A stretch of 64,000 nt of DNA, from the NCBI GenBank assembly GCA_964404925.1, contig CAYOLW010000002.1, positions 38,995-102,994 on the forward strand, read 5' to 3'. The notes under the pieces were generated by a model, which saw nothing but the letters and a program-made list of their open reading frames with translations, did not search any database and had not been told where the DNA came from. This stretch comes from an uncultured Candidatus Saccharibacteria bacterium. Lineage in GTDB: Bacteria; Patescibacteriota; Minisyncoccia; Phycocordibacterales; UBA9973. Positions 22,064 to 49,807 of the stretch are shown here, one piece after another (position 1 is the stretch's first letter; the number at the start of each line of letters is the position of its first letter). A program made the position numbers and the translations under genes.

Positions 22064-22103
22064 TTTAGGTCGAGATTATAAATTTTTAAAATTTAAATAA
22101 AAT

Positions 22104-22475
22104 ATGAACAAAAAAGTTTTGGTTATTGAAGATGAAACAAGTTTAAGGTTTTTATTGTGCGAACGTTTAAGTTCTGAAAATTTTCAAATTTTTTCAGCCA
22201 GTAATGGGGTGGATGGTCTGTCTTTGGCTTTACAGGAAAAACCGAACCTAATTTTATTAGACATAATGATGCCAGGTATAGACGGTAACCATGTTTTAGA
22301 AGAGATCCGAAAAAATGATTGGGGTAAAAAAGCTCATGTTATAATATTAACTAATTTAAACACTAGTGAAGAGTTGGCCAAAGCTTTAGAACTAGAAGCT
22401 TTTGAATTTTATGTTAAATCTAATATCAAGATAGAAGATTTAATGCAAAAGATTATTCAATACTTAAAAAAATAA
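22104..22475 (+). CDS. single-domain response regulator (CheY-like receiver)
   Basis: VLVIEDE...LLDIMMPGIDG...K; 123 aa, no output domain. Confidence 0.8.
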   Translation: MNKKVLVIEDETSLRFLLCERLSSENFQIFSASNGVDGLSLALQEKPNLILLDIMMPGIDGNHVLEEIRKNDWGKKAHVIILTNLNTSEELAKALELEAFEFYVKSNIKIEDLMQKIIQYLKK

Positions 22476-34115: not shown

Positions 34116-34763
34116 TTATATATTAAAAGTTGATTTTATCTTTTTCATTGTATTCACACTGAATTCGGATAATAACATTTTTCTTAACTTCCGAAGCGTA
34201 ATTATTGAAATAATTATAATCAAACCTGAGAACATAATATTGTGTATTACTCTGGTGCCCGAGAATATTCTTTCTATGCTATGCGCGAAATAATAGCCCA
34301 CACCCATGGCAACCGGCACATACACCGCGAGTGCTAGGAAATCCACTTTGAGGAAATGCTTAAACGGTGTACCGACGCGGGCAGCAGTAATAGGGCCGAG
34401 TGCGCGGAGCTGGACTAAAAACCTGGAGACAAAGATAATTTTGTTAACGTGTTTTTTCAAGAAATCAGATTGGGTGTCTATGTCTACGTCTAATACTTTC
34501 TTTAATATATAATCAATAATTCGGTGCCCACGCCGAGCTAGGTAATAGACCACAGAGTCTATAATCAAAAGCCCAATAATCAAGAAGGTCATTATCTGGG
34601 TAAAAGAAATAAGCTCGGGTTTCAAATTGGCAAGATAGCCGAAATATATGAGGAATATTTCTTCAGGGATGGGAGGGAAGGCATTAGCAAATATTGCAAT
34701 CAGCACGAACCACGCAGGGGATATGTGATCAAGCGGCAAATTCACAAACGGCAGATTTTCCAT
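34116..34763 (-). CDS. DedA/VTT-domain membrane protein
   Basis: Multi-TM protein; start set at the internal Met MENLPF because the 47 upstream codons look non-coding. Confidence 0.6.
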   Translation of the reverse strand: MENLPFVNLPLDHISPAWFVLIAIFANAFPPIPEEIFLIYFGYLANLKPELISFTQIMTFLIIGLLIIDSVVYYLARRGHRIIDYILKKVLDVDIDTQSDFLKKHVNKIIFVSRFLVQLRALGPITAARVGTPFKHFLKVDFLALAVYVPVAMGVGYYFAHSIERIFSGTRVIHNIMFSGLIIIISIITLRKLRKMLLSEFSVNTMKKIKSTFNI

Positions 34764-35182
34764 TGATATATTATATAGTAGATTAAAGGCCTCTCGATAT
34801 TGACATAAACAAATATGCGGGTTAATATATAAAAGTGTAAGTTCTTTATACAAGTTGAATGATGACGAAAGAGTGCAATTTATTAGATTGTTTTCTTCCT
34901 TCATTAAATTAACTTAAACATGGGATCTCTTTTTCAAAAACCCTCTAAAGGGGTTGTTGTTGGAACATCAGCAACTATTTTTCTTTTGTTGCTTGTATTT
35001 ATTTTCCATCGGGAAATACTATTTTTTCTACAACATTACGTAAGTTTTGATTTGTCTGGCCACCCAGGAAATGGTGGCTACTAAAATTAAAATAACACCC
35101 GTTTTCGGCTTCATCGCGTAGTAATTACGTGGGAAGCCTTTTATTTTGCAAAAAATATAAATTTTGGTAGTATTTCCGTATT

Positions 35183-35360: not shown

Positions 35361-35432
35361 GGCCTCATCGTCTAACGGTTAGGACAGCGGGTTCTCAATC
35401 CGCTAATCGGAGTTCGATTCTCCGTGAGGTCA
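35361..35432 (+). tRNA. tRNA-Glu (anticodon CUC)
   Basis: GGCCTCATCGTCTAACGGTTAGGACAGCGGGTTCTCAATCCGCTAATCGGAGTTCGATTCTCCGTGAGGTCA; anticodon loop TTCTCAA. Confidence 0.8.
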
Positions 35433-35623
35433 CATGAGCGAAAAGCAGCTAAACTGCTTTAGCTGCGAGCGAAGTGTGAAGACGGAGGCATAATTCGCCA
35501 GTAGGCGAATAGCCGAGTCCGGGGCTGGAAAATTTGCGAGTGACGACGAGTAAATTATTGTAGCTCACACTATTTAAGTACGCGAAGCGTTCAAAATTCG
35601 GATGTCCGACGTCCGAAAACATT

Positions 35624-36520
35624 ATGAAAAAGTATATAAATTATCTATTATTTTTATTGGTAATATTAGGGATAATATATTTCTCTCTCAATTCATTTTT
35701 ACTGATAAATATTTTAAATATAAATTTACGATCTGTATATGACTTTATATATGACTGGCAACAGTTAATTGGTGCATTTTTAGGTGCATTAACTCCAATA
35801 GCACTTTTCTTGATAAATGAAAAATATCAAAAGAAACAAAAAAAGAAAGCACATCTTTTGCTGTTAGAAAAAAGTATTATTTTAGCAATAAACAATTTGA
35901 GCGATATAGACAATATGCTCCATCGTTTCAATAGTAATCAACTTACAGTAGCAAAACAAAGAATAGCGAATGAGTCATTAAAAAATCAATATTCTGTTGG
36001 GCAGATTTTCATACCCCTTACAGCTACCTTTTCTTTTTCTGATGAGTTAATGAATGAAACCACAGACAGTAATTACATAGAAAATCTCAAAATGGATGTT
36101 TATGCCACATCAAAAGAACTGCCTATTTTGTTACAAGATCTTAACAGGCAATTTGATAGAAACATAAACCTCAATACCCAAATATCAATAGCAAAATTAA
36201 ATGACCCTAAAATGCAAAATACAGTATTTTTATCTAATATTACTGACTTTGAGAAGTATTTATATGCCGAAGTCTTTGGACATAACATTCCAGTATATTT
36301 AAGAAAGCTCGTGACATTACTTATTGCTTTAAAGAAAATGAATAGCTTAGGGTTAAAAAAATGGAGAGCGACATTTCCTTTTAAACAACCATATACACAA
36401 GAAATTGATGAAAAAATATCAGCATATTTCTCCGAAGAGATAAATAATAAAATAAAAGAATTAGATAAAAGTTTCAAATCAAAACTTTTATTAGTTGAAG
36501 AGAAAAGTAGTATAGTTTAG
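35624..36520 (+). CDS. hypothetical membrane protein (two N-terminal TM helices)
   Basis: 298 aa, very AT-rich, no recognisable family. Confidence 0.5.
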   Translation: MKKYINYLLFLLVILGIIYFSLNSFLLINILNINLRSVYDFIYDWQQLIGAFLGALTPIALFLINEKYQKKQKKKAHLLLLEKSIILAINNLSDIDNMLHRFNSNQLTVAKQRIANESLKNQYSVGQIFIPLTATFSFSDELMNETTDSNYIENLKMDVYATSKELPILLQDLNRQFDRNINLNTQISIAKLNDPKMQNTVFLSNITDFEKYLYAEVFGHNIPVYLRKLVTLLIALKKMNSLGLKKWRATFPFKQPYTQEIDEKISAYFSEEINNKIKELDKSFKSKLLLVEEKSSIV

Positions 36521-36526
36521 GTTTTT

Positions 36527-37270
36527 ATGAAAAAAATAAACAAAACAAATACAGACATTGTGGCAATTAAAGAGCAAAATCAAGTCTCTGTCCTTAGAGA
36601 TCCAAATTTATTAAAACCATTTTTGGAACAACCAAAACTAAAGATTGCAGAATTTATTACAGGAGCTTTATCTAATGGTCTTTCAGATTGGACAAAGATA
36701 GGCGGTAGGTTGGTTCAAGGAGTAATAGTTGGAAATTTAATGACACAAGTTGGAAGAGAGATAAATAAACTCATAGATGAAGGAAAAATTAAAGAAAACT
36801 ATGCTGAAACAAAATATGGATTTAAATCATTAGAAGAATTATTGAAATTTATTGATAGTGAAGCACCCGACGAAGATAGATTTAATGCTGTGAAAGCGAT
36901 GTTTTTTGCTTTAAATAGCGTTGACGTGAAAAATTTAGGTGAAGAAATATTGCGTTATCAGTTATTTCATGTATCAACCAAATTGAGTTCATCTCAATTA
37001 TTAACTATGAGAGCTGCATATGAGTTTAAGAAAAATCATACACAACATAGTAGCGCTGAGGCGTGGTTGCAAGATATTTCAAAACAAATAGGTCATAACT
37101 CTAAAGGTTTAGTAGAAAATGATGAAACTGTTTTAGAACAGGAAAAATTAATTACAGGCAGGACATATAATGACAGAAGTGGAGTTAGGGGTCACAATGG
37201 CAGATTGAGTGATTTTGGAATTTCATTAGTTGAATATATATTAAAGTATGAAAATTATATTGAAGAATAA
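36527..37270 (+). CDS. hypothetical soluble protein, operon partner of the upstream membrane protein
   Basis: 247 aa, no recognisable motif; starts 7 nt after the upstream stop. Confidence 0.5.
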   Translation: MKKINKTNTDIVAIKEQNQVSVLRDPNLLKPFLEQPKLKIAEFITGALSNGLSDWTKIGGRLVQGVIVGNLMTQVGREINKLIDEGKIKENYAETKYGFKSLEELLKFIDSEAPDEDRFNAVKAMFFALNSVDVKNLGEEILRYQLFHVSTKLSSSQLLTMRAAYEFKKNHTQHSSAEAWLQDISKQIGHNSKGLVENDETVLEQEKLITGRTYNDRSGVRGHNGRLSDFGISLVEYILKYENYIEE

Positions 37271-37397
37271 AATAAGAGTACTCAAAAGTAAAAACTGGTT
37301 TGAAAACAGCGATACATCGTATACATAAGTTTTAAAAGCACAAAAGACTCTTTACTTGATTGAATACTTGGTTCCAATCTCATATAATTAAACTCAC

Positions 37398-37916
37398 ATG
37401 AACTTTATTGTTATAAACGGCCCATCTTGTGTAGGAAAAAGCACAACAATCAACCATTTAATGGAAACCAAGGACGGATATTTCCATTTGTCTTATGACA
37501 AAATTAAGAGAAATTTCTCTAGATATGAATCAGGCAAATATGTTAATGAAATCTTCAGCCTTTTGTTCGTAATGGAGAAAAACATTTGCGAACAAGGTTT
37601 AGATATTTTGACCGATATAGCTGTATGGCGGGAGAATAGAGAAAAAATAATTGAAATCGCAAAGCAGTATAACTATCAAATATTTGAAATTAATTTAGAA
37701 GCCCCATTTGATGTTGTGCTAGAAAGATTTAGAAATCGAGTAAACGAGTCCATAATAAATCCAGAGAAGAAACTCGCCAATACATCTGAAGTAAGACTAA
37801 AAGAAATGTTTGATATATACGAAGAAGGGAAGAATAAAAATGCCTTAACGTTGCGGACAGATCAATTAACTCCTCAAGAAATAAAAGAGCAGATTTTGGA
37901 TTATATAAATAGATAA
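37398..37916 (+). CDS. P-loop kinase-like protein (AAA_33/chloramphenicol-phosphotransferase-like fold)
   Basis: N-terminal Walker A INGPSCVGKST; 172 aa. Confidence 0.55.
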   Translation: MNFIVINGPSCVGKSTTINHLMETKDGYFHLSYDKIKRNFSRYESGKYVNEIFSLLFVMEKNICEQGLDILTDIAVWRENREKIIEIAKQYNYQIFEINLEAPFDVVLERFRNRVNESIINPEKKLANTSEVRLKEMFDIYEEGKNKNALTLRTDQLTPQEIKEQILDYINR

Positions 37917-38311
37917 TAAATACAAATATTCTATTTATCGCCATAAGTTCTAATCACACCTTTCAGCTATTGACTTTTCTATTATTTGTGTTAATCTGCA
38001 GTTAAATTTTAGCTCGTTGAAATAAGAAAGTGACGGGTTGGGGAATGATTCTAGCCTCTAATTATTTAGGGTTTTGAATCATTCACCTTAACTCTTCACT
38101 TAAACAAAACAAAAAAATCATGGAAGGAAAAACCATCCTTTGGATTATAGGAGGCCTCGTCCTGTATTTACTTGTTGGCTACATAAATGCATTGAGAGTC
38201 AGAAACTCTGCTCGGGGACTTTCAGCCACTCTTCAAATACCAATGAAACACGACAACTTAGACAAGACCATAATTTTTTTCTGGATTTTCAAAATGTTCA
38301 AATTTTAAACC

Positions 38312-38629
38312 GTGCTATCTATGGCTAACTTCTTTTTGTATTTGGACTGTCTTGTAACAAACAAGGTCTCTCGATTCTCGCTTCTTCTTTTCGCCTTAGG
38401 TTTTTTTCTGATGCGAAAGTATAATTGGATTTTTTTTCCGATTGTGCTTTTTGTAATCGGCGGAATCCTATTCTTTTTCACAGGTTTTGGGCTTAATAGT
38501 TACATTCTCTGTAAGAGAATGTGTAATATTGTTGAAAGTCGTGGATTTCTAGAGGTCTCTGAAGACGACATAGACACACCCTGTGCCTCAGCCGCCTTTA
38601 AGGTGGCATCAAGAAGATATAGTAAATAA
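38312..38629 (+). CDS. hypothetical membrane protein
   Basis: 105 aa with two or three hydrophobic helices; weak call. Confidence 0.3.
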   Translation: MLSMANFFLYLDCLVTNKVSRFSLLLFALGFFLMRKYNWIFFPIVLFVIGGILFFFTGFGLNSYILCKRMCNIVESRGFLEVSEDDIDTPCASAAFKVASRRYSK

Positions 38630-38857
38630 AATATAATCCAACGCATACCCGCTTTCACAAAACAGTTAATCTGCTAAGTGTTAGCGGGTTTTCTGTTTTT
38701 CGGTTATCTTGCATCTAAGCAAATATAATGTAGTATTCAATCGAATCAAATCGCGCCTGGCGAGTATCTCAGGTATCTCTATATATGAGAAAGCTCTTTA
38801 TACTTTTTTTATTTTTTTACCCTGAATTTATTTTTGGTCAGCTAACCCTGCAGAGTA

Positions 38858-39286
38858 TTGTCGCTAAATTCGAGACTGAAATGGACACTTGTTTATCTGA
38901 CTGTTTCAAATACAGGTTGGATAACATTTATAAGTTCACCCAGGATAGCTATAGGTGACCCTCATTTTTTTCCATTCCCTCACAAGACTATTTGGATCAG
39001 AGATTCTTCTGATTTGGAAATGCTAGTAGAGGAGGTGTCTCATTCATACCAATGGCAACAAAAAGGCGGTAAGTTTCGTTTAGTTACCGCTGCCAGTGGA
39101 CTATATCTAAAGGCTGCTTGGTTATCTGTTTGGAAAAAAGATGGTAAAAAATTAACACTTTGGCAAAGATATTCAGACTTTGCCTATGAGCCCATGCGGC
39201 ACAAGTTCTGGGCCTATGAATATGAGGCTCACAATGAAATTGTTCGAGATATGTGGAAGTATTTGGGTTGCAAGGACAGTTTTTGA
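38858..39286 (+). CDS. hypothetical protein, possibly the 3' part of a frameshifted secreted-protein gene
   Basis: TTG-initiated ORF. An ATG frame from 38786 encodes a signal-peptide-like MRKLFILFLFFYPEFIFG and stops at 38953 inside this ORF. Confidence 0.35.
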   Translation: MSLNSRLKWTLVYLTVSNTGWITFISSPRIAIGDPHFFPFPHKTIWIRDSSDLEMLVEEVSHSYQWQQKGGKFRLVTAASGLYLKAAWLSVWKKDGKKLTLWQRYSDFAYEPMRHKFWAYEYEAHNEIVRDMWKYLGCKDSF

Positions 39287-39298
39287 AAGTAAATCTTA

Positions 39299-39341
39299 AA
39301 AGACTATGCAGTAGTATGAACTAACGCATAGTCTTTTTTTA
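39299..39341 (+). terminator. rho-independent terminator
   Basis: AAGACTATGC-(16 nt loop)-GCATAGTCTTTTTTT. Confidence 0.75.
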
Positions 39342-39382
39342 TTGTTATAATATAGTCATTATTAATTATTAAATATAATTAT

Positions 39383-39547
39383 ATGGGAATAGAAGCAGGT
39401 TATTCAAAAAAGGGTACAGAGACATGTCCATCGTGCAATGGTGATGGTGTAATAAAAACACGTATTGAAAGCAATAGCGAACTACAATTCCGTACAGATA
39501 CATGTCCTACCTGTAAAGGTTCTGGGCAAGTACCAGCCAGGAAATAG
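39383..39547 (+). CDS. small zinc-ribbon protein (54 aa), hypothetical
   Basis: CPSCNG...CPTCKG, two CxxC pairs. Below the 60 aa ORF-track cutoff, so I translated it by hand. Confidence 0.35.
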   Translation: MGIEAGYSKKGTETCPSCNGDGVIKTRIESNSELQFRTDTCPTCKGSGQVPARK

Positions 39548-39575
39548 GTTTACTGATAAATAGTAATTTTTGCTA

Positions 39576-40011
39576 TAATACTGGCACAGATGCCGACCAA
39601 GAAAATTAAGAAAATATTAGTGGTAGAAGACGAGCGCCCAATGGCACATGCGCTTGATTTAAAGCTGACCCATGAAGGGTTCACTGTGACCGTAGCTTAT
39701 AACGGAGAAGAAGCACTAAAAGCTATGGAGGATACTGAATTTGATTTGGTTCTGCTTGATATCATGATGCCGAAGCTAGATGGATTTGGAGTCTTAGAAC
39801 AGATGAAGATTCTCAATTACAAATGGCCGGCGATAGTTTTGTCTAATCTGAGTCAGAGTGAAGACGAGAAAAGAGCTCGCGATTTGGGTGCAAATAAATT
39901 TTTTGTTAAATCCAATACTCCAATAATGAGAATTGTGGACTACGCAAAAGAAATTTTACGCGGGTAGTGTTATACTATTTAACAGATGAATATTGATGAG
40001 CAAAAATTAAT
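39576..40011 (+). repeat. upstream copy of the duplicated block (regulator promoter/5' end, then regulator 3' end plus pilB first 8 codons)
   Basis: 39576-39635 and 39862-40011 recur at 41765-41965. The 3' ~147 nt appear identical; the 5' ~60 nt carry 3 mismatches. Confidence 0.8.
39590..39967 (+). CDS. single-domain response regulator (CheY-like receiver)
   Basis: ILVVEDE...LLDIMMPKLDG...K; a paralogue of the receiver at 22104. Confidence 0.8.
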   Translation: MPTKKIKKILVVEDERPMAHALDLKLTHEGFTVTVAYNGEEALKAMEDTEFDLVLLDIMMPKLDGFGVLEQMKILNYKWPAIVLSNLSQSEDEKRARDLGANKFFVKSNTPIMRIVDYAKEILRG

Positions 40012-40016
40012 TTAAA
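39987..40016 (+). pseudogene. 8-codon pilB 5' stub (MNIDEQKL then I and a stop)
   Basis: Identical to the first 25 nt of the full pilB at 41941, then diverges into the insert. Confidence 0.5.
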
Positions 40017-40019
40017 TAT

Positions 40020-41054
40020 ATGGAAATCAATCAAGAAATAACAGAAGTAGAGCAGGGTGTTAAAGAGTATATAAAAAAAGATAATGGTTTTACTCTTATA
40101 GAGATAATCATGGTCATTGTTGTAATAGCGATTCTGGCAAGTTTGTCACTTGTGGTTTTTTCTGAAGCAAGGAAAAAAGCAAGAGACACACAACGTATAA
40201 CTGCTATTCAAAATATTAATAAAGCAATTCAAGTATATATCACTGATTATGGTCTAGCACCAGATCTTGGTGATCCTGCGTGCCTTGAAGTCCTTAACCC
40301 TAATCCATCTTGTGTTGCTGATATTATGAATCATCCAAATGAATGGACAGATTTAGCAAAAGCGCTAGAGCCATACATCCATATTTTGCCCACCGATCCT
40401 TGTGTGAATTGTGTAAGTGTTTTTACTAATGTTGCTTATGCACAAACAGGTTTAGATTATAACTTTGTTTATAAAGCACCAGCAGGTATAGCATATGATT
40501 TACAGCAAGCAGGTCTATCGTTAGATTTTTTGGATAGTAGTACATATCGAATATATGCTGATAAACTTGAGAAATTTGATGGAGCATTTGGGTATGGTTA
40601 TAATTTACATGGTTTTTTTGCTTTAAATAATGATGCTTCTGTATTAGATGAGTTATGTCCTTTAAGTTCAAAAGAGTATTGTGATTTTTGGCCTGATTTA
40701 GTTAAAAAAAATACCGAAATTTGCAATTCGGGCGATTTGGAAACATGCATTATGTTGGCGCGTCACGGATTGTTTGATGGATCAAATGTTTTTAAATGTG
40801 TATTTAATACAGAAGAACAATGCGCTGAATGGGATTCTTTTCTATATAAAAACATAACAATATGTAATGAGGGAGAAAGGTCTAGTTGTGATTTGTTAGC
40901 AAAATATGATTTATACCCACAGATTACAGAATGTCCTTTAAAGGAACGTGATTGCCTTGCTTGGTTTGAAGAAATACAAAATAATTTATTATTATGTGAT
41001 TTTAAAGAAGAGACAGCTTGTAATTGGTTGGATAAAAATAATGTTTTTAAATAA
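40020..41054 (+). CDS. prepilin-type N-terminal domain protein with Cys-rich tandem repeats
   Basis: Class III signal GFTLIEIIMVIVVIAILAS after a 23 aa leader. The C-terminal half carries repeated units of the type xIC-N-xGx...C. Confidence 0.6.
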   Translation: MEINQEITEVEQGVKEYIKKDNGFTLIEIIMVIVVIAILASLSLVVFSEARKKARDTQRITAIQNINKAIQVYITDYGLAPDLGDPACLEVLNPNPSCVADIMNHPNEWTDLAKALEPYIHILPTDPCVNCVSVFTNVAYAQTGLDYNFVYKAPAGIAYDLQQAGLSLDFLDSSTYRIYADKLEKFDGAFGYGYNLHGFFALNNDASVLDELCPLSSKEYCDFWPDLVKKNTEICNSGDLETCIMLARHGLFDGSNVFKCVFNTEEQCAEWDSFLYKNITICNEGERSSCDLLAKYDLYPQITECPLKERDCLAWFEEIQNNLLLCDFKEETACNWLDKNNVFK

Positions 41055-41764
41055 TACTGGTTTTTGGGCAATTGCTTCTGCAAGTAGTTGTAAAAAATTT
41101 TGAATTAGAAAAGGACGCTTTTTTATTTAATGGGTCTATCAATTGAGGAAGTATAGCCATGTATTCTTGATGAGCTTTAGTCGTGTCTAAAATTACTCCC
41201 TTATCTGCTGAACTTTTTACTTGGACTAGATATAGAGTATGAACTTGATTATTGTCTTCTACTATCCAAGGAAAGAAAGGTATCTTTGGCACTTTCTGTA
41301 CCACTTAATATCATTTTTACTTCTGCTTGTATTTTTTCAGAATTACTACCTAATTCTTCAGCTAAAACCTACTTAATAATAAAAGAAATGTTATTAATTG
41401 GTATATTATACTGAGTCACTATTCTTAGTAATGCATTTTGTAATCTTGCTTCTGGTAAGTAGAGAACTCTTCTTTTTAATTCTTCTCCTTAATAAACTCC
41501 AACTACTCGTCTTTGGGTGGCTGATATATCTCTTTCTGAACTTTCTCTTAGATAAATTTTAATTAAGTTTTTGATTTTATCATTTGCTGGACCAGCATGT
41601 ATCTCGTTTTTAACAGGAACAGTCGCTGTAAAAGCAGGTTGTCCTCTGTCTCAACCCTTCTCAAAAATCAATTTAAAAAAATTATTTTCTGCCCCCCATA
41701 ACTAAACTGTAGCATTTTGGCTTTATATTTTAATAGAACTTTTTTTAAGTTTAAGTACGGGTTA
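41055..41764 (-). pseudogene. decayed gene of unknown identity
   Basis: Minus-strand translation gives three or more long fragments joined only across stops and frameshifts (for example DRGQPAFTATVPVKNEIHAGPANDKIKNLIKIYLRESSERDISATQRRVVGVY). The only intact ORF is the 85 aa piece at 41047..41304. Confidence 0.35.
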
Positions 41765-41965
41765 TAATACTGGCACATATGCCGACCAAGAAAACTAAGA
41801 AAATATTAGTGGTAGAATACGAGAAAAGAGCTCGCGATTTGGGTGCAAATAAATTTTTTGTTAAATCCAATACTCCAATAATGAGAATTGTGGACTACGC
41901 AAAAGAAATTTTACGCGGGTAGTGTTATACTATTTAACAGATGAATATTGATGAGCAAAAATTAA
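41765..41965 (+). repeat. downstream copy of the duplicated block (regulator remnant plus the true pilB start)
   Basis: Direct repeat of 39576-40011 with a ~225 nt internal deletion whose ends sit at a 9-nt microhomology (GAAGACGAG/GAATACGAG). Confidence 0.8.
41779..41922 (+). pseudogene. in-frame internally deleted response-regulator remnant (47 codons: MPTKKTKKILVVEYEKRARDLGANKFFVKSNTPIMRIVDYAKEILRG)
   Basis: The 5' 16 codons and 3' 31 codons of the regulator at 39590 are fused; the phosphoacceptor region is missing. Confidence 0.6.
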
Positions 41966-43599
41966 AAGACATACTGCTCCGCCAGAACTATATTACTGAA
42001 AAAGATTTCACCACTGCCGCTTTAAATGCAAAGAAAGAAAAGATTTCACCAGTCAGATACCTATTAAACCAAGGAATAATTTCTGAAGGTTTAATAGCTC
42101 AGGCATTAGCCGAGTCTTTTGGTGTTCCTTATTCAGATTTAAAGTTAAGAGAACCCTCCAAGGACGTAGTAAATCTAATTCCAGAGAAATTTGCTCGTGA
42201 AAAGAGGGTAGTATGTGTGTCTTCTAATAAAGACCAAGTAGTTGTAGCCACAGACAATCCATTGCAGCCAAAATTAGCTGAAGAATTAAATTCTATTTTG
42301 CATAATAGTAATATTTCTATTACGTACGCACTGCCTGAATCCATAGATCAAATTCTACGTTTTTATCAAAAATCATTAGATACCAGATTTTCTAAAATAA
42401 TTGCTGCTGGTAATAGGGTTGCTCCAGAAATATTAGAAGAAATATTTGAAGATGCGTACGCTTTTTCAGCTTCAGACATACATTTTGAACCTAATGCTAA
42501 AGACATCTCGGTTCGTTTCAGAGTGGACGGAGTATTGCAAGACGGGGGTAAACTTCCAAAAGAATTTTACGAAAATATTTTAAACAGAATCAAAGTTGAA
42601 AGCCGACTGCGCATAGACGAGCATTTTGCTGCACAAGATGGATCTATGCATTACGAATCAGGTACAGATGCAGAGAAAAAGTTTTTTGATTTACGTACAT
42701 CTATTGTACCGACGGTGGAAGGGGAAAAAGTAGTGTTGCGTGTTTTGTCTTCGTATGTAGAAGGTTTGTCTTTGGCTGATTTAGGTTTTAGTAAAGAAGA
42801 CGGAGAAAAGATTGAGAAAGCAGCGCATAAACCCTTCGGCATGATATTGGTTACTGGACCAACTGGTTCTGGCAAGACGACTACTCTGTACGGAGTGCTC
42901 AAAATATTAAATACTAGGGAAGTAAACGTCACCACCATCGAGGACCCTGTCGAATATAAAGTATCCGGTATAAATCAAATTCAGACTAATCTAGAGACAA
43001 ATTTAACCTTTGCTAAAGGTTTGCGTTCTATCGTTCGCCAAGACCCAGACATCATATTGGTAGGTGAAATCAGAGATGAGGAAACAGCCGAAATAGCGGT
43101 GAACGCTGCACTGACCGGGCATTTGTTGTTGTCGACTTTTCACGCCAATGATGCTTCTACTGCTATACCTCGACTACTTGATATGGGTATTGAACCTTTC
43201 TTGCTTTCATCAACCCTTGAATTAATTGTTGCTCAGCGTTTGGTACGCAAGATATGCGAGGCTTGTCGTTATAGCACCGAATTGTTAGTGAGTGATTTAG
43301 CAAAAAAATACAAAAATGTTCACGGTTTTTCTGGCAAGAATATTACCTTGTATCAAGGCAAGGGTTGTGACACATGTGCTGGTACTGGGTTTAAGGGACG
43401 TACAGCTATCTTTGAATTTATTGAGATAACTCCAGCCATGTCTGAATTAATGCTCAAGTCCCCGTCTTCGATTGAGATTCAAAAATTAGCCAAAAAAGAA
43501 GGAACTAAATCAATGTTTGAAGATGGGCTTGAGAAGGTTAAATCCGGTGTGACGACATTAGACGAATTACTACGGGTGGCACCTCCGCCAATCGAATAA
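41941..43599 (+). CDS. pilB: type IV pilus assembly ATPase PilB (GspE family)
   Basis: T2SSE N-terminal domain, Walker A GPTGSGKTTTLY, Asp/His boxes, and tetracysteine motif CEAC...CDTC. Confidence 0.9.
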   Translation: MNIDEQKLKDILLRQNYITEKDFTTAALNAKKEKISPVRYLLNQGIISEGLIAQALAESFGVPYSDLKLREPSKDVVNLIPEKFAREKRVVCVSSNKDQVVVATDNPLQPKLAEELNSILHNSNISITYALPESIDQILRFYQKSLDTRFSKIIAAGNRVAPEILEEIFEDAYAFSASDIHFEPNAKDISVRFRVDGVLQDGGKLPKEFYENILNRIKVESRLRIDEHFAAQDGSMHYESGTDAEKKFFDLRTSIVPTVEGEKVVLRVLSSYVEGLSLADLGFSKEDGEKIEKAAHKPFGMILVTGPTGSGKTTTLYGVLKILNTREVNVTTIEDPVEYKVSGINQIQTNLETNLTFAKGLRSIVRQDPDIILVGEIRDEETAEIAVNAALTGHLLLSTFHANDASTAIPRLLDMGIEPFLLSSTLELIVAQRLVRKICEACRYSTELLVSDLAKKYKNVHGFSGKNITLYQGKGCDTCAGTGFKGRTAIFEFIEITPAMSELMLKSPSSIEIQKLAKKEGTKSMFEDGLEKVKSGVTTLDELLRVAPPPIE

Positions 43600-43607
43600 C
43601 CAATCGA

Positions 43608-44702
43608 ATGCAAAAAATTTCAATTCAAAAAATTAATGATTTTTTTGCTGATATGGGTTTTGTAAAAGAGAAAGAATACTTCTTGACCAATTTGAGCATG
43701 CTGCTTGATGCAGGAATGAATGTGTCTGATGCTGTGGCTACTTTGCGCAAAGAATCTAAATCTCCCTCAATGCGTAAATTGCTTGCGAATGTTGGTGAAG
43801 ATATAAGTAACGGTTTTTCTATCTCGAATACTTTAAAAAGATCTGGTTTCACTACTGATCACACAGATTCGCTCATTAAAATAGGTGAGGAGTCAGGTAA
43901 GCTGTCACAAAATCTAAAAATTATCGCCGTTGGAGAAGAAAAGAACAGAGTTTTCCGTTCTAAAATTCGTTCGGCGATGCTTTATCCAATGTTTGTTTTT
44001 GGAGTGACTATTATGGTGGGGATAGTGGTGATTTGGTATATATTACCCAGGCTTGCAACTGTATTTTCTCAAATGAATATTGAGTTGCCGGCTTTGACTC
44101 GAGCTTTAATTGCAACCGGTAATTTCTTGGCAAAATACGGAACTTTTTTTGTGCCGACGGTGCTTTTGCTTTTAAGTTCGATTTTCTATTTTCTATTTGT
44201 ATTTCATAAAACTAAACATATTGGGCAAAGGTTTTTATTATCTTCGCCTGGTGTCGGAGAAATATTAAGACAAATAGAGATTGCTCATATGGGTTATATA
44301 TTAGGTACCTTGCTCGACGCTGGTATTCCAGTTGTTTCTTCACTTAATTCTCTTGCTGAATCCACCAGTTCCCGAACACATCAAAATTTTTATAAAAAAA
44401 TTAAAAACAGTATTGCTGATGGCAATTCTTTTGCCAAGACATTCGATTCTTTGTCAGAGACAAATAAATTCATTCCACCAACAGTTGAACGTCTAATTGT
44501 ATCCGGAGAACAATCGGGTAAATTGTCTGAAACATTGCTGAAGGTTGGTATTCATTATGAAGCAAAGATTGATGATACAACCAAGAATCTGTCAGTTATT
44601 TTTGAACCAATCTTGTTGGTTATTGTATGGGTTGGGGTGGTGTCTGTGGCGCTTGCTGTTATTTTGCCTATTTATAGTTTGATTGGTAATTTCAATCGCT
44701 AA
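43608..44702 (+). CDS. pilC: type IV pilus platform protein PilC (GspF family)
   Basis: 364 aa; two T2SSF repeats with three TM helices. Confidence 0.85.
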   Translation: MQKISIQKINDFFADMGFVKEKEYFLTNLSMLLDAGMNVSDAVATLRKESKSPSMRKLLANVGEDISNGFSISNTLKRSGFTTDHTDSLIKIGEESGKLSQNLKIIAVGEEKNRVFRSKIRSAMLYPMFVFGVTIMVGIVVIWYILPRLATVFSQMNIELPALTRALIATGNFLAKYGTFFVPTVLLLLSSIFYFLFVFHKTKHIGQRFLLSSPGVGEILRQIEIAHMGYILGTLLDAGIPVVSSLNSLAESTSSRTHQNFYKKIKNSIADGNSFAKTFDSLSETNKFIPPTVERLIVSGEQSGKLSETLLKVGIHYEAKIDDTTKNLSVIFEPILLVIVWVGVVSVALAVILPIYSLIGNFNR

Positions 44703-44703
44703 T

Positions 44704-45147
44704 ATGTCGACAAAACAAAACCATGGTTTTACATTGATAGAAATGTTGTTATCAGTAGCTGTTTTTGGTGGAATTTTGGCCATAGGGGCGCCGTTGTACA
44801 GCCGATTCCTCAGTATCAATAACCTAAACACAACTACTACTATTTTGGTACAAAATCTAAGGCATGCTAGGAATTCGGCTATTTCTGTTGACGGAGATAG
44901 TCCGTGGGGTGTCCATGTCGCATCAGGTGTTATTACTGTCTACAAGGGTGCTTCTTATGCCACACGGGATGTATCATTCGATCAGGTGAATAATGTCCCA
45001 ACTGAAGTTACTTTTTCCGGCGATACTGAAGTTGCGTTCAAGAAATTCGATGGTTTGCCAAATTCAGATACAATTTTTACTCTAACAAATACCAATAATC
45101 AAACAACCAACATTAATATTAATACCAAAGGCTTAATTGATTTTTAA
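44704..45147 (+). CDS. prepilin-type N-terminal cleavage/methylation domain protein (pilin)
   Basis: MSTKQNHG/FTLIEMLLSVAVFGG class III signal peptide. Confidence 0.7.
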   Translation: MSTKQNHGFTLIEMLLSVAVFGGILAIGAPLYSRFLSINNLNTTTTILVQNLRHARNSAISVDGDSPWGVHVASGVITVYKGASYATRDVSFDQVNNVPTEVTFSGDTEVAFKKFDGLPNSDTIFTLTNTNNQTTNININTKGLIDF

Positions 45148-46551
45148 ATGTATAAAAAATTAAAAATTAATAAAGGCTTTTCAATAATAGAAGTATTGTT
45201 GGCTGTTTCTGTTTTTGGTTTGTTGGTTTCTGCCTTGTCTGGTATTTATTTTTATGGCCAAGAATCAGGTGTTCTCTCTGGTAAACGTAACCGTGCTGTA
45301 TCTTTGGCTGAGGAGGGTATTGAGGCTGTACGTAATATACGTGATGCTAATTTTGCTAATTTAAACGACGGCACTTACGGACTAAGTAAATCTGGTAGTA
45401 GTTGGGTTTTAACACCTGTGCCGGATACTACAGGTGCCTACACTCGTGCAATAAACATTAATTCCACAGATGCCGATCATAAAGAAATAACCTCGACTGT
45501 AACCTGGCAGCAAAATGCTACTCGTTCAGGTAGTGTGTCTATTGTCTCAAAACTTAATTATTGGACAAGGATTATTTCTACCGCTGATTGGGCTAAACCA
45601 CTTTTAACGTCTAGTTTAAATCTGGCAGGTAATAATAATGGTTTTAAACTGCAGGTTAAGGGGGATTATGTGTATTTGATACGCAATGCTGGCACACCCA
45701 ATCTGTATATTTTAAATATCTCTAATCTAAATAGTCCATCACTTGTCGGTTCGATTGCTTTGTCTGGAACACTTAGGAATATATATACTGATGGAGGTTA
45801 TGTGTATGTAACATCAAACAGTAATAATCAAGAGTTGCAAATAGTAGATGTATCGAATCCTGCCGCTCCTTTTATAGCTGGTACTTATGATGCAGCTGGT
45901 ACCTCAGACGCCAATGGTGTTTATGTTGCTGGTAATTATGCATACATGGCAAAGGCGAGTAGCACCAGTCACGAATTTTTCGTTGTGGATATAACGAATC
46001 CTGCTTTACCGGCACTAGCTGGATCGGTGGATTTAGGTACCACTGGTTATGAATTAGTAACTTCTGGTGGTTTTGCTTATGTAACCTCTGCGAATAATAC
46101 TCAAGAAGTAAAAGTTATAAATATTTCAACTCCAGGAAGTCCCACTGTACAAGCTAACCTTAACCTTACTGGTAATAATGACGCAACTGTAATTGGACTA
46201 TATAATTCAACTACTCTTGTTGTGGGGCAAAACACTAGTTTCTACACTATTAGTATTGTGAATCCATTGGCTCCGAGTGTTCTGGGTACTGTCAATATTA
46301 GTGCAATTGTTAATGATATTTCTTTAGAATCTAATACTTCAGGTGAATATGTGTATCTAGCAACAAGTGATAACGCTGATGAGTTTCAGGTTGTAGATGT
46401 CTCTGACAAAGTGAATCCTGTAAATTACGGGAGTTATGACCAAACCGGTTTAAACGTATTAAACGGAGTTGCTTATATGCCTGGAATAGACAAGGCATTT
46501 GCTGCTAGCAGTTCAAATACGCAAGAATTCATAATTTTAGAACCTCAATAA
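45148..46551 (+). CDS. pilin-like protein with large C-terminal repeat domain (LVIVD-type beta-propeller-like repeats)
   Basis: NKGFSIIEVLLAVSVFGLL prepilin motif. The C-terminus holds about 7 repeats of the form YVYVTS...QEL/FxVVDVSNPxxP. Confidence 0.65.
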   Translation: MYKKLKINKGFSIIEVLLAVSVFGLLVSALSGIYFYGQESGVLSGKRNRAVSLAEEGIEAVRNIRDANFANLNDGTYGLSKSGSSWVLTPVPDTTGAYTRAININSTDADHKEITSTVTWQQNATRSGSVSIVSKLNYWTRIISTADWAKPLLTSSLNLAGNNNGFKLQVKGDYVYLIRNAGTPNLYILNISNLNSPSLVGSIALSGTLRNIYTDGGYVYVTSNSNNQELQIVDVSNPAAPFIAGTYDAAGTSDANGVYVAGNYAYMAKASSTSHEFFVVDITNPALPALAGSVDLGTTGYELVTSGGFAYVTSANNTQEVKVINISTPGSPTVQANLNLTGNNDATVIGLYNSTTLVVGQNTSFYTISIVNPLAPSVLGTVNISAIVNDISLESNTSGEYVYLATSDNADEFQVVDVSDKVNPVNYGSYDQTGLNVLNGVAYMPGIDKAFAASSSNTQEFIILEPQ

Positions 46552-46552
46552 A

Positions 46553-47071
46553 ATGCAAAAAATTAATACAAAATTAAATAGAGGATTTACTCTGATTGAA
46601 ATGCTTCTGTATATTTCGATTGCAGGTACTCTGATGTTGGTTATTTCCATCTTTACTAATTCTATTTTAGAATCTAGCGTTAAAAACACAACAATTATAG
46701 AAGTAGAATCCAGCGGAGAATATATCTCTCAGATAATGAATCAAACATTGCGTAATGCTACGAGTATAAACACACCGATTGCGGGTAATACTAGCTCAAC
46801 GCTTTCTGTAGACACGACTGATGCAGTTTTAAATCCAACTATTTTTGATTTATCGGGAGGGGTGTTGAGAATCAAAGAAGGCACTGCGGATTATATAGAA
46901 CTTTCTAATTCAAAAGTAATAGTATCGGATTTAAATTTTAAAAATCTAACAGTGTCTGGCGCACCAGCTAGTGTTAGCTACTCTTTTACTGTTTCTTCTT
47001 CGAGTGTCAGTCCGAGACAAGAAAATAAATATAGTCAAAATTTTTATGGTGGAGTAAGTTTACGAAAATAA
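46553..47071 (+). CDS. prepilin-type N-terminal domain protein (minor pilin-like)
   Basis: NRGFTLIEMLLYISIAG. Confidence 0.65.
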   Translation: MQKINTKLNRGFTLIEMLLYISIAGTLMLVISIFTNSILESSVKNTTIIEVESSGEYISQIMNQTLRNATSINTPIAGNTSSTLSVDTTDAVLNPTIFDLSGGVLRIKEGTADYIELSNSKVIVSDLNFKNLTVSGAPASVSYSFTVSSSSVSPRQENKYSQNFYGGVSLRK

Positions 47072-47476
47072 ATGCAAAAAATTAATTCAAAAACAAAAGG
47101 TTACGTTACTCTGATTACTGTTTTGGTTATGGGGGCTATCAGCGTATCAGTGACTATGACTATAGTTATGACTGGTATTATATCAACAAAAGACAGTTTA
47201 TCTGTTGTGCAAAGCAGGCAAGCAAATTTTTTAGCTAATGCCTGTGCTGAGGATGCATTACAAGAAATTCGTAATGATACTCTGTATGTGGGTACAGTCC
47301 AAATAAATTTAGGGTCTGGATCATGTACTTATACCGTTACTAATAATGGAGGTGAATCGCGAACTATTGCATCTTCGGGAACTGTTGGTACAATAATAAG
47401 GAAGAGTAAGATACAAATTGACGCTATTAATCCAAAGATTAATATAACGTCTTGGCAAGAAGTTGCCGACTTCTAA
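47072..47476 (+). CDS. pilin-like protein (PilX-like hydrophobic N-terminus)
   Basis: KTKGYVTLITVLVMGAISV N-terminal helix without the canonical G/F-E motif. Confidence 0.45.
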   Translation: MQKINSKTKGYVTLITVLVMGAISVSVTMTIVMTGIISTKDSLSVVQSRQANFLANACAEDALQEIRNDTLYVGTVQINLGSGSCTYTVTNNGGESRTIASSGTVGTIIRKSKIQIDAINPKINITSWQEVADF

Positions 47477-47504
47477 GTCGTATGAAGTTAAAAGAATAAA
47501 AAAT

Positions 47505-47981
47505 ATGATGACAAATTATAAGAAAGGTTTTACATTATTAGAAGTTTTGCTTGTGGTCGCCGCTATTGGTATTTTAGCCGGTATAGTTATTGTTGCACTT
47601 AACCCAAATAAGCAACTTGGTGATACTAGGAATGCTCAACGCAGGGCTGACGTGAATACAATATTAAATGCAGTTTACCAGTATGCTATAGATAATAGTG
47701 GTAATTTGCCAGCTGGCATTGACTCGACTGCTGGTTCATCTCAGGTTTTAGGTACAACTGGTTCTGGACTTGATTCTACTTGTACAGCAACCACTACCGT
47801 TGCTGCGGGGCTTGATCTGTCCGCAGTATTGGTGCCTACCTATATCGTAGGTATTCCTATGGATCCAAAGACTGGTTCAGCAGGTAATACAGATTACTAC
47901 ATTAACAAAGATGCAAACGGAAGAATAACTGTTGGTGCCTGTGACCCAGAACAATCTGCTGTAATTAGCGTAACCCGCTAA
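47505..47981 (+). CDS. type IV pilin (PilA-like)
   Basis: MMTNYKKG/FTLLEVLLVVAAIGILAGIV with conserved Glu+5. The longer TTG-initiated frame was rejected. Confidence 0.65.
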   Translation: MMTNYKKGFTLLEVLLVVAAIGILAGIVIVALNPNKQLGDTRNAQRRADVNTILNAVYQYAIDNSGNLPAGIDSTAGSSQVLGTTGSGLDSTCTATTTVAAGLDLSAVLVPTYIVGIPMDPKTGSAGNTDYYINKDANGRITVGACDPEQSAVISVTR

Positions 47982-49807
47982 TGAATATTGTTTCCACAAT
48001 ACTTTTCATTCTCCTTGGTATAGCAGTGCTTGCCAAGGAGAGGGAACGTGGAGGGACTGCACGTTTAATCGGTTTTCTCGTGTCATTAGTTTCCTTGTCT
48101 TTGTTAATAATGCCAAGGAGTTTTTTCGCTTTGTATAATATTGAAGGTTTTTTATCTATACCTTCTTTTTTAGAATCTATCAGTTCCTTTTTGCTTGGAA
48201 CAATTTTTTTACTACCACACAAGAGTGCTTTCCGTAGGTACTATTATTTAGAATTTGCTACAGGCTTGTCTGTATTGTTATCTGCCTTATATATGGTGGG
48301 TTATTTTTTTCCAGCGACAGCTATAACTAATTATAGTATTTTTAACGATAAGGAAATTATTTTTGTTTTTATAAATATATTATTGACTTTTGTCGTTTTC
48401 ATTAATTTTCGGTCAAAATATGAATCCAAGTTCTTGTTTAATAAAAAAGTCTTCACGTTGGCGATACTTTTTGGCGGAGTTCTTTTTTCTCTTAGTTATG
48501 CATCTTATTTGAGTAACTTACTCAGCAATTCAACCCCAAATTTAATACCGCTGCTTAACTATATTCCAATTGTTATAGTAGTACTCGGAGTACTGCTCAG
48601 TGTTCTTTTTATTCTAATGTTGTATGCTTTTTCTTCTCTGCGCGAGAGAACCGTATTGTATGCTAATGATGTCACCAAAGGCTTGCGTCAGGCCAAGGCT
48701 AAAGACGAGGCACTACTGCTGTCTATCGGTGAGGGTCTGGTTGCTACCGGTAAAGATGGAAACATAATTTTCGTTAATCGTGCTTTTGAAAGTATGCTTG
48801 GTTGGAAAGAAGAAGAAGTACAAGGAAAACTTTTTCTAAACCTGGTCCATATGTTTGACGAGAACGGTAAGGAAATTCAAAAAGACAACCGTCCTTTTTA
48901 TAGCGCACTGCAGACTAAAAATTCAAAAGATTTTAAATCTAAAACAACAACTAATATGTATTATCGACACCGAGATGGTAACATTTTCCCGGTGGCTATT
49001 ACGATTTCTCCAATTGTTGTGGAAGGTGAGATGATGGGTGTCGTAGAAGTGTTTAGAGATATAACCAGAGAAAAAGAAATAGACAAGGAAAAGACTGAAT
49101 TCGTTTCTCTGGCTTCGCATCAATTGCGAACACCTCTATCATCAGTGAATTGGTACACTGAGATGCTTTTAGCAGGAGATGCTGGTAAATTAACTAAAAA
49201 GCAAAAAGAGTATGCAGATGAAATATTCCAAGGTACACAAAGGATGGTTAGACTCGTAAACGACCTATTGAATGTATCTCGGTTAGAACTGGGTACATTC
49301 TCTGTGAATCCAGAGACAGTGGATGTGGTGGCAGCAGCCTTCGATGCTATTGATGAACAAAAACAACATATTAAATTGAAGAAAATAAAAGTGACAACTG
49401 ATTTCCCTGATGAGAGGCCATTAGAAATGGAAGCAGATCCTAAATTACTGCATATGATTTTCCAGAATTTATTATCAAATTCAATAAAATATACTGGAGA
49501 AAAAGGGCATATCAATTTGGCAGTTTTTAAAAATGGGAAAGAGATACTTATTGAAGTTTCAGATAATGGTATCGGTATTCCAAAAAATGAACAAAGTAAA
49601 ATTTTCACTAAATTATTCCGTGCTGACAACGTAAAGGAACAAGACATGGAAGGCACAGGACTCGGACTGTATATTATTAAATCTATTGTTGAGAAGTCCG
49701 GCGGTTCAATCCGTTTTGAATCAACAGAAGGTGAGGGAACTAAATTTATTGTAGATTTCCCAGAAGGAAATATGAAAAAAAGAGAAGGTAGTAGAGAACT
49801 TAGCTAA
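47981..49807 (+). CDS. membrane sensor histidine kinase (multi-TM, PAS, HisKA, HATPase_c)
   Basis: 6-7 N-terminal TM helices, PAS region, H-box FVSLASHQLRTPLSSVNWYTEMLL, G-boxes DNGIGIP and GTGLGL. A paralogue of the kinase at 19814. Confidence 0.8.
   Translation: MNIVSTILFILLGIAVLAKERERGGTARLIGFLVSLVSLSLLIMPRSFFALYNIEGFLSIPSFLESISSFLLGTIFLLPHKSAFRRYYYLEFATGLSVLLSALYMVGYFFPATAITNYSIFNDKEIIFVFINILLTFVVFINFRSKYESKFLFNKKVFTLAILFGGVLFSLSYASYLSNLLSNSTPNLIPLLNYIPIVIVVLGVLLSVLFILMLYAFSSLRERTVLYANDVTKGLRQAKAKDEALLLSIGEGLVATGKDGNIIFVNRAFESMLGWKEEEVQGKLFLNLVHMFDENGKEIQKDNRPFYSALQTKNSKDFKSKTTTNMYYRHRDGNIFPVAITISPIVVEGEMMGVVEVFRDITREKEIDKEKTEFVSLASHQLRTPLSSVNWYTEMLLAGDAGKLTKKQKEYADEIFQGTQRMVRLVNDLLNVSRLELGTFSVNPETVDVVAAAFDAIDEQKQHIKLKKIKVTTDFPDERPLEMEADPKLLHMIFQNLLSNSIKYTGEKGHINLAVFKNGKEILIEVSDNGIGIPKNEQSKIFTKLFRADNVKEQDMEGTGLGLYIIKSIVEKSGGSIRFESTEGEGTKFIVDFPEGNMKKREGSRELS

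Follow-up and report, generated by a model that had tools for sequence, protein, structure and literature searches.

We analysed a stretch of 64,000 nucleotides (the window) from contig CAYOLW010000002.1 of an uncultured Candidatus Saccharibacteria bacterium, focusing on a gene for a prepilin-like protein, hereafter the window pilin, which lies upstream of a type IV pilus operon. The gene and the spacer DNA that follows it stand between two direct repeats. The first copy holds a TATAAT-like box, a complete response regulator (RR) gene, an 18-nt spacer and the first 24 nt of pilB, whereas the second copy keeps the same box and the RR start, followed by a deletion and then by the intact start of pilB, from which the operon continues. 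Overall, the gene probably encodes a modular type IV pilin, i.e. an orphan pilin that came to be placed before pilB and that bears a tail of disulfide-locked hairpins for binding. The coordinates of all features are given in Table 1.

The N-terminus of the window pilin reads MEINQEITEVEQGVKEYIKKDNG followed by FTLIEIIMVIVVIAILA, the boundary being the predicted cleavage site, with Gly at -1, Phe at +1 and Glu at +5 (...DNG/FTLIE). The class III signal claimed in a preliminary description of this DNA was borne out, being recognised over the curated cut-offs by both Pfam PF07963 (N_methyl; 28.1 bits versus 21.2, residues 19-42) and TIGR02532 (29.9 bits versus 16.3). GspG-type major pseudopilins (TIGR01710) also aligned with residues 23-129, which cover the N-terminal helix and the beginning of the head; however, the score was 37.8 bits versus a cut-off of 88.85, and the gene lies beside a PilB/PilC pilus operon rather than among genes for type II secretion. 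The protein contains 16 Cys, with 4 in the globular head (88/98 and 128/131) and 12 in the C-terminal tail.

These 12 Cys, all within the C-terminal 135 residues, form six pairs (213/221, 235/243, 260/268, 282/290, 305/312 and 326/334) with the spacing C-x7-C, or C-x6-C in one case. Half-units of two types alternate along the tail: A, with the pattern CP(Y/L)-x5-C-x2-W, and B, with the pattern C-x2-G-x4-C-x-(W/L)-L. Together, one A and one B half make a double module of about 45 residues, of which the tail holds three copies. When the protein was compared with itself, the best offset was 47 residues, with a score of 88, whereas the best of 500 shuffles reached 47; masking Cys gave a score of 51, and 37 for the best shuffle. 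A hidden Markov model (HMM) built exclusively from the modules of other proteins recovered all three window modules (26.0, 24.8 and 18.6 bits), with a total of 60.6 bits for the window pilin (E = 1e-16) in a set of 16,459 open reading frames (ORFs). The other matches in this set were all orthologues of P0009 (one of the related clusters described below), i.e. the model's own source sequences. An alignment of 20 modules showed four invariant Cys and the consensus xxCP(Y)x5CxxW...CxxGDxxACxWLxxN. The preliminary description had counted at least four units of about 20 residues, each with a Cys pair; the repeat itself is thus genuine, as judged from the shuffles, the HMM and the alignment, whereas its layout is one of six half-units in three double modules. 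At the DNA level, about 30% of the alignment columns were identical in all three copies, and Tandem Repeats Finder (TRF) detected no tandem array in the modules. Because the DNA copies have diverged so strongly and no array was found, the repeats are old and do not form a slippage-prone tract; a recent origin by tandem duplication or slippage was considered and rejected on the same grounds.

To describe the fold, the full-length protein was modelled with AlphaFold2 (AF2) and the family alignment, giving a mean predicted local distance difference test score (pLDDT) of 78.7. The model contains a helix at residues 26-77 and four strands in the alpha/beta head (99-101, 149-152, 177-180 and 190-193), where pLDDT was mostly >90, with values of about 50-70 at residues 131-150. 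The tail was predicted as three helix-turn-helix units, with low-confidence linkers (<50) between them. In a Foldseek search of the PDB with the full model, only the N-terminal helix aligned with solved pilins, from Neisseria and Thermus (E = 0.25). Within each modelled unit, Cys1 lies in the loop before the long helix, Cys2 and Cys3 at the opposite ends of this helix, and Cys4 at the start of the short helix; because of these positions, local Cys1-Cys2 and Cys3-Cys4 bridges are favoured. A CHCH-like twin C-x-C hairpin was rejected, since Cys2 and Cys3 occupy opposite ends of one predicted helix.

Table 1. Features of the pilin gene, the insert and the pilus operon (positions in the window; ".", no strand assigned).
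Feature	Position	Strand	Basis or detail
Pilin ORF	40020..41054	+	344 aa
Pilin leader, residues 1-22, last residue Gly22	40020..40085	+	PF07963 and TIGR02532 over cut-offs
Mature N-terminus (FTLIE...) and long alpha-1 helix, residues 23-77	40086..40250	+	AF2 helix 26-77, pLDDT 82-98; Foldseek
Globular pilin head, residues 78-196; family-conserved Cys88/Cys98 and DPC128-x2-C131	40251..40607	+	phmmer, family alignment, AF2
Linker, residues 197-210, predicted disordered	40608..40649	+	pLDDT <50 at 197-211
Cys module 1, residues 211-252 (Cys 213/221, 235/243)	40650..40775	+	helices 218-236 and 240-248 predicted
Cys module 2, residues 258-299 (Cys 260/268, 282/290)	40791..40916	+	helices 265-283 and 287-295 predicted
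Cys module 3, residues 303-343 (Cys 305/312, 326/334)	40926..41048	+	helices 312-327 and 331-339 predicted
Direct repeat copy 1, 437 nt	39574..40010	+	repeat finding, alignments
Intact RR, 125 aa	39590-39967	+	Response_reg PF00072, E 3e-23
Nine-codon pilB 5' remnant (MNIDEQKLI, then stop)	39986..40015	+	sequence; alignment with true pilB and L085
Spacer DNA in insert, 708 nt, GC 0.31	41055..41762	.	no ORF >85 aa
Direct repeat copy 2, 203 nt	41763..41965	+	alignments
RR remnant, 47 aa, without receiver core	41779-41922	+	alignment
Receiving pilus operon: PilB ATPase, PilC platform, five prepilin-type genes, PAS histidine kinase	41941..49807	+	Pfam
LVIVD-propeller prepilin, second gene after pilC, 467 aa, N_methyl and 4 LVIVD repeats (E 2e-26)	45148-46551	+	Pfam

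Neither Pfam nor NCBIfam recognised a domain in the Cys region, PHROGs and PADLOC matched neither this region nor the 708-nt spacer, and no PDB structure was retrieved by Foldseek with the tail model. The module is undescribed in the domain and structure libraries searched. In register, the B half (aC-x2-GD-x2-AC-xWL) resembles the core of Sel1-like repeats (SLRs), AA-eqGdaeAq-ynLG, with the two Cys of the Hcp proteins. Helicobacter HcpB and HcpC (PDB 1KLX and 1OUV), to which the predicted hairpins may be comparable, are built of alpha/alpha repeats of about 36-45 residues with C-x7-C followed by x-x-L, and a disulfide formed by the Hcp Cys pair links the end of each repeat with the beginning of the following one (PMC3851747). 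However, they lack a counterpart of the second Cys pair of the window module (CPY-x5-C), and the window modules are parted by predicted disordered linkers instead of forming a single solenoid. 'Sel1/Hcp-like' is therefore best taken as a lead, not as membership.

A PDB profile search gave non-significant matches only (best E = 0.066), to GRF and CCCH zinc fingers and to a 14-residue stretch of a Sulfolobus protein. The best of these, the NEIL3 GRF finger ('CPLxxExxCxFF', E = 0.066-0.21) and the CPSF4 CCCH fingers (E = 1-2), share the local pattern of the module and bear on the alternative that the four invariant Cys of each module bind metal as a C4 zinc or iron site, so that the tail would consist of metal-stabilised knuckles. 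A reducing habitat would suit such sites. The zinc-finger matches, however, all had E >0.05 (0.066-2) and rested on a 14-residue stretch, C-x7-C within predicted helices differs from the usual zinc knuckle, and the B pair aligns with the known disulfide pair of HcpC. Moreover, the pairs occur independently of each other in the family, with an A pair alone in P0013 and a B pair alone in the second module of P0020, which a four-ligand site would not tolerate. We consider metal binding unlikely.

To place the window pilin in a family, we searched for its relatives. In a word-indexed search of 5.8 billion proteins, the full protein matched only itself and sequences confined to the N-terminus; the module alignment gave no match there, and the repeat region of P0012 matched P0012 only. 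A scan of genome contigs with the pilin was dominated by the generic GFTLIELL motif and mostly returned unrelated pilins. When residues 61-344 were compared exhaustively with 1.84 billion cluster representatives by phmmer, 48 relatives were recovered, the majority being prepilins of 170-190 aa that align to residues 63-195. The family shares the motifs ARxKARDAxR, AIxLY, two head Cys, W..L...L.PY, DPC..C, Y.Y.Y.AP, Y.IYA.LE and a terminal FGFG. Several paralogues of this small-pilin head occur per genome, and the few matches with an organism name came from metagenome-assembled genomes (MAGs) of Zambryskiibacteria and Paceibacteria. The family belongs to Patescibacteria-like organisms, and the host of the window pilin is probably a member of the Patescibacteria.

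Among these cluster representatives, Cys modules follow the head in about seven clusters: P0009, P0010/P0056, P0011, P0012, P0020, P0032 and P0013. Two modules were counted in P0009, P0010/P0056 and P0011, and about nine in P0012, with a DNA period of 111 nt. The Cys pairs vary separately, since P0013 has a single A pair and the second module of P0020 a B pair only, and P0012 shortens the A pair to C-x4-C; the number of Cys in the C-terminal extensions was even in every case. In the searches run, the module was seen exclusively on pilins or, for P0032, on a fragment with the same pilin head.

Two types of head were distinguished. In the subgroup with DPC-x2-C (n = 12), to which the window pilin belongs, 11 of the 12 proteins extend 65-337 aa past the last head strand; all members with DPCG-x2-C (at least 30) stop 11-35 residues after the head, with no extension. 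The window pilin runs 160 residues beyond its last head strand, versus 11-35 in the tail-less members. At least three unrelated kinds of tail were found in the DPC-x2-C subgroup, namely the Cys modules, beta-rich tails (P0017 and P0054) and a Ser/Thr/Asn-rich tail (P0034). Since DPC-x2-C heads bear varied tails and DPCG-x2-C heads none, the window pilin belongs to a 'carrier' lineage that has repeatedly gained different C-terminal modules, and the exchangeable part, on an evolutionary time scale, looks to be the module on the carrier pilin. P0017 and P0054 combine the DPC-x2-C head with a Cys-containing, beta-rich domain of about 100 aa, and P0034 combines it with a Ser/Thr/Asn-rich domain of 215 aa; by their sequences, these appear to be further undescribed modular-pilin architectures.

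As the preliminary description had stated, the gene lies in a repeat-flanked insert beside pilus assembly genes: direct repeats were found, pilB and pilC are adjacent, and the insert is absent in all 17 relatives compared. The two repeat copies are 95% identical over 61 nt and 99% identical over 151 nt. Copy 2 differs by an in-frame deletion of 234 nt between two 9-nt GAAGACGAG microhomologies. The resulting RR remnant has retained its start codon, the promoter-like box before it and the distance between its stop codon and pilB, and may thereby preserve translation into the pilB start region. At the other end of the insert, the pilin ATG lies 4 nt past the stop codon of the pilB remnant, and the two may be translationally coupled.

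All 17 relatives with a PilB identity of 48-70% lack the insert, and a gap of 4-58 nt separates their RR gene from pilB downstream of it. The closest of them, L085 (RR 84% and small pilin 87% identical), aligns across the junction of copy 2 with pilB, and not across that of copy 1 with the pilin gene. The copy 2-pilB junction is thus ancestral, and the pilin gene with its 708 nt is a derived, lineage-specific insertion, because the 17 relatives lack it and L085 aligns only through the copy 2-pilB junction. The third-codon-position GC content (GC3) of the pilin gene, 0.186, is the lowest in the neighbourhood (0.24-0.33 in the operon genes).

The exact 10-mer ATAATACTGG occurs only three times in the 64 kb, at both repeat starts (39575 and 41764) and at the pilin stop codon (41051), and positions 39555-39584 and 41031-41060 are 73% alike. 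This 10-mer and this similarity suggest that the rearrangement may have involved microhomology or left a vestigial third boundary. Two hairpins were observed 3' of the pilin stop codon, the second being followed by a U-run, and this second hairpin may be a weak terminator; promoter and terminator scans gave results no better than shuffled sequences. The spacer had a fold z-score of -1.69 and no match in Pfam, NCBIfam, PHROG, PADLOC or tblastx searches, nor in Rfam at E up to 1. Its minus strand reads like a broken coding sequence; the idea that this strand (41055-41762) carries a decayed toxin-antitoxin pair found no support.

The repeats, with their 95-99% identity, the absence of the insert from the 17 closer relatives, the low GC3 of the pilin gene, and the 10-mer at both repeat starts and at the pilin stop codon would all suit the preliminary description's proposal that the pilin is cargo of an exchangeable, repeat-flanked cassette for swapping pilus tip adhesins. 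However, the flanking repeats are duplicated host sequence (RR gene, promoter-like TATAAT and first 24 nt of pilB) and not recombination sites of the att or inverted-repeat type, and no integrase, transposase, recombinase or end site was found from 35.6 to 50 kb. Moreover, in the contexts read for P0009, P0020, P0012 and P0056, the homologous genes were solitary among housekeeping genes, often near family pilins and a DedA/VTT gene, and were never beside pilB/pilC nor flanked by repeats; the sole repeat, of 240 nt in L165, corresponds to two paralogous pilin 5' ends. Members of the head family were found at none of 80 PilB loci, and a single such event has been seen. The swappable cassette therefore did not hold up, and we regard it as distinctly improbable. 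Instead, the event looks like a single rearrangement, in which microhomology may have been used.

Family pilins lie near a DedA/VTT-domain gene in L081-L084, L165-L166 and L168-L169; in two lineages, their neighbours also include a CarS-like gene and one, unannotated, that encodes 430-441 aa. A VTT gene is also present in the window (34116-34904), about 5 kb upstream of the pilin gene. This proximity may be conserved synteny of the home locus of the family.

We also weighed whether the locus is an assembly chimera or the gene a non-functional passenger. The source is probably a metagenome assembly, in which repeats invite mis-joins, the protein is recorded from a single contig, an exact look-up gave no called gene, and the neighbouring 708 nt look decayed. 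However, point changes and one clean in-frame deletion distinguish the two repeats, as expected of true paralogous copies, and the 344-codon ORF is intact, with its 16 Cys and every family-conserved residue kept. Either explanation is very unlikely.

In the receiving operon, the gene order (RR, PilB, PilC, five pilins and histidine kinase) is conserved in the 17 relatives, and the PilB relatives come largely from groundwater and sediment metagenomes. The LVIVD-propeller pilin, itself a modular pilin, is conserved in the operons of the relatives and recalls PilX2 of TM7x; by analogy, it is likely to be the primary tip adhesin of the pilus. A small operon pilin (47463-47981) is highly conserved, with 87% identity in L085, and occurs as a tandem duplicate in some relatives. 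Two complete PilB-PilC-pilin operons lie in tandem in L093 and L094, and the small pilin is duplicated in L091 and L092. In L109-L163, whose PilB is about 40% identical, small pilins lie upstream of pilB in the place of the RR gene.

This small pilin bears on a further alternative, in which the window pilin would itself form filaments as a major-type pilin, giving a separate, decorated pilus whose whole shaft is coated with Cys modules. Its head comes from a widespread small-pilin family with several paralogues per genome, its gene is the first after the promoter-proximal RR gene, and the predicted linker is long and flexible enough for the tail to project from the shaft, a possibility raised for modular pilins (PMC8179133). 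The conserved small pilin is nevertheless the better candidate for the major pilin, and a 150-residue tail on each subunit would be sterically costly, which makes a major-type role improbable.

The window pilin is most likely an extra binding subunit displayed on the pilus, at low abundance or at the tip, by analogy with the modular pilins, which act as adhesins (PMC8179133). Like PilB-vWA and PilC-lectin of Streptococcus sanguinis (PMC8179133), it combines a pilin module with a class III signal, a short linker and an additional C-terminal module that would be displayed, and, as in modular pilins, one carrier head is found with differing modules in its subgroup. It differs in that its tail is predicted as tandem four-Cys helical hairpins of about 45 residues and not one globular domain. 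The extra module bears no domain signature; the definition of a modular pilin calls for an additional domain of recognisable function that is found outside pilins as well, and no Pfam or NCBIfam domain of this kind was found. The survey of modular pilins by Raynaud et al. (2021; PMC8179133) already includes architectures from the Candidate Phyla Radiation (CPR) and LVIVD pilins. Among the Patescibacteria, PilX1 and PilX2 of TM7x are also pilins with C-terminal accessory domains, and PilX2, a beta-propeller pilin, is required for host binding (PMC11623550). The window operon encodes an equivalent propeller-bearing pilin (45148-46551); the TM7x accessory domains are beta-propeller or jelly-roll folds, in contrast to the predicted Cys-stapled helices of the window pilin. 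Display of the latter as a tip or adhesin subunit is plausible by this comparison.

In the mechanism that we propose, a prepilin peptidase encoded outside the window would cleave after Gly22 and the adjacent PilB/PilC machine would insert the subunit in the pilus, where its bulky tail would probably confine it to the tip or to a low abundance. The tail would hang from the filament as a chain of small, rigid hairpins with two local disulfides each: the Cys1-Cys2 bridge would fasten the CP(Y) loop to the long helix, and the Cys3-Cys4 bridge would staple the turn between the helices, as in Hcp-type SLRs. It would thus offer a ligand- or host-binding surface. The gene itself may derive from the pool of orphan pilin genes of the family. 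The rearrangement would have duplicated 437 nt, from the RR promoter to nt 24 of pilB, and set the pilin gene before pilB. The pilin gene would now lie behind the intact RR gene, and the pilB operon would retain its own copy of the promoter and of the junction between the RR stop and the pilB start; the downstream RR copy would later have lost its core by microhomology deletion. The pilin would probably be expressed from the RR transcript and the former initiation region of pilB, with the duplicated promoter still serving pilB.

Several observations weigh against an extra, disulfide-stapled binding subunit. A candidate tip adhesin is already present in the operon, namely the LVIVD-propeller pilin, and because the operon already encodes this propeller-bearing pilin, the window pilin would add a second specificity rather than be the primary adhesin. 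The arrangement is known from one genome only, probably a metagenome assembly. The acidic 22-residue leader is longer than that of most family members, no peptidase A24 motif or Pfam match was found among the window ORFs examined, and neither PilT nor PilM was found in the 64-kb window. When folded by itself, the tail showed the same helices with a pLDDT of 68.5, i.e. only moderate confidence for the repeat region. Anoxic water is the habitat of many such organisms, and extracellular disulfides are less certain there. Finally, the link to Sel1/Hcp proteins is weak. Pfam Sel1 (PF08238) gave no match at E up to 10 with the window pilin and six homologues, and the PDB sequence searches returned no SLR proteins. 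With an SLR profile made from repeat units rebuilt from the HcpC (1OUV) and 6OK3 sequences, hhalign placed module columns 18-38 on SLR columns 12-32, with Cys3 and Cys4 superposed on the HcpC pair (P = 5.4e-4, probability 30%).

Other observations concern the surroundings of the operon. In the region 35361-39547, ORFs of low GC content (0.27-0.32), mostly without a family match, occupy about 4 kb after a tRNA-Glu(CTC); the exceptions are an AAA_33 kinase-like gene (37398-37916) and a 54-aa mini-protein with a DnaJ-type CxxCxGxG zinc finger (39383-39547). This tRNA is also found in L085, there on the opposite strand and separated from the RR gene by only 1.4 kb. The region may be a variable island beside the pilus operon. 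Further upstream (19814-22475, + strand), a second PAS histidine kinase of 749 aa is followed by a receiver-only RR that is 39% identical to the RR of the pilus operon.

Type IV pili are the best-supported means by which Patescibacteria (CPR) attach to their hosts; to our knowledge, the basis of the binding specificity of these pili is largely unknown. It is conceivable, though rather doubtful, that the four-Cys hairpin is a new and very rare extracellular repeat family, grafted by ultra-small episymbionts on a carrier pilin for host recognition, and that this locus catches the wiring of an orphan adhesin-pilin into a regulated pilus operon; the hairpin family is perhaps an offshoot of SLRs. 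If this were true, a promoter-duplicating rearrangement would be one route to altered pilus specificity. The locus documents a rearrangement that would bring an orphan pilin under the control region of a pilus operon with pilB not disabled, and its family is a clear case of a pilin carrier subgroup able to take up different C-terminal modules. The compact module, predicted as Cys-stapled helices and undescribed, may also provide a handle on extracellular disulfides in such organisms. Current views are not overturned by these findings, which would broaden the concept of modular pilins by a new module and a new lineage.

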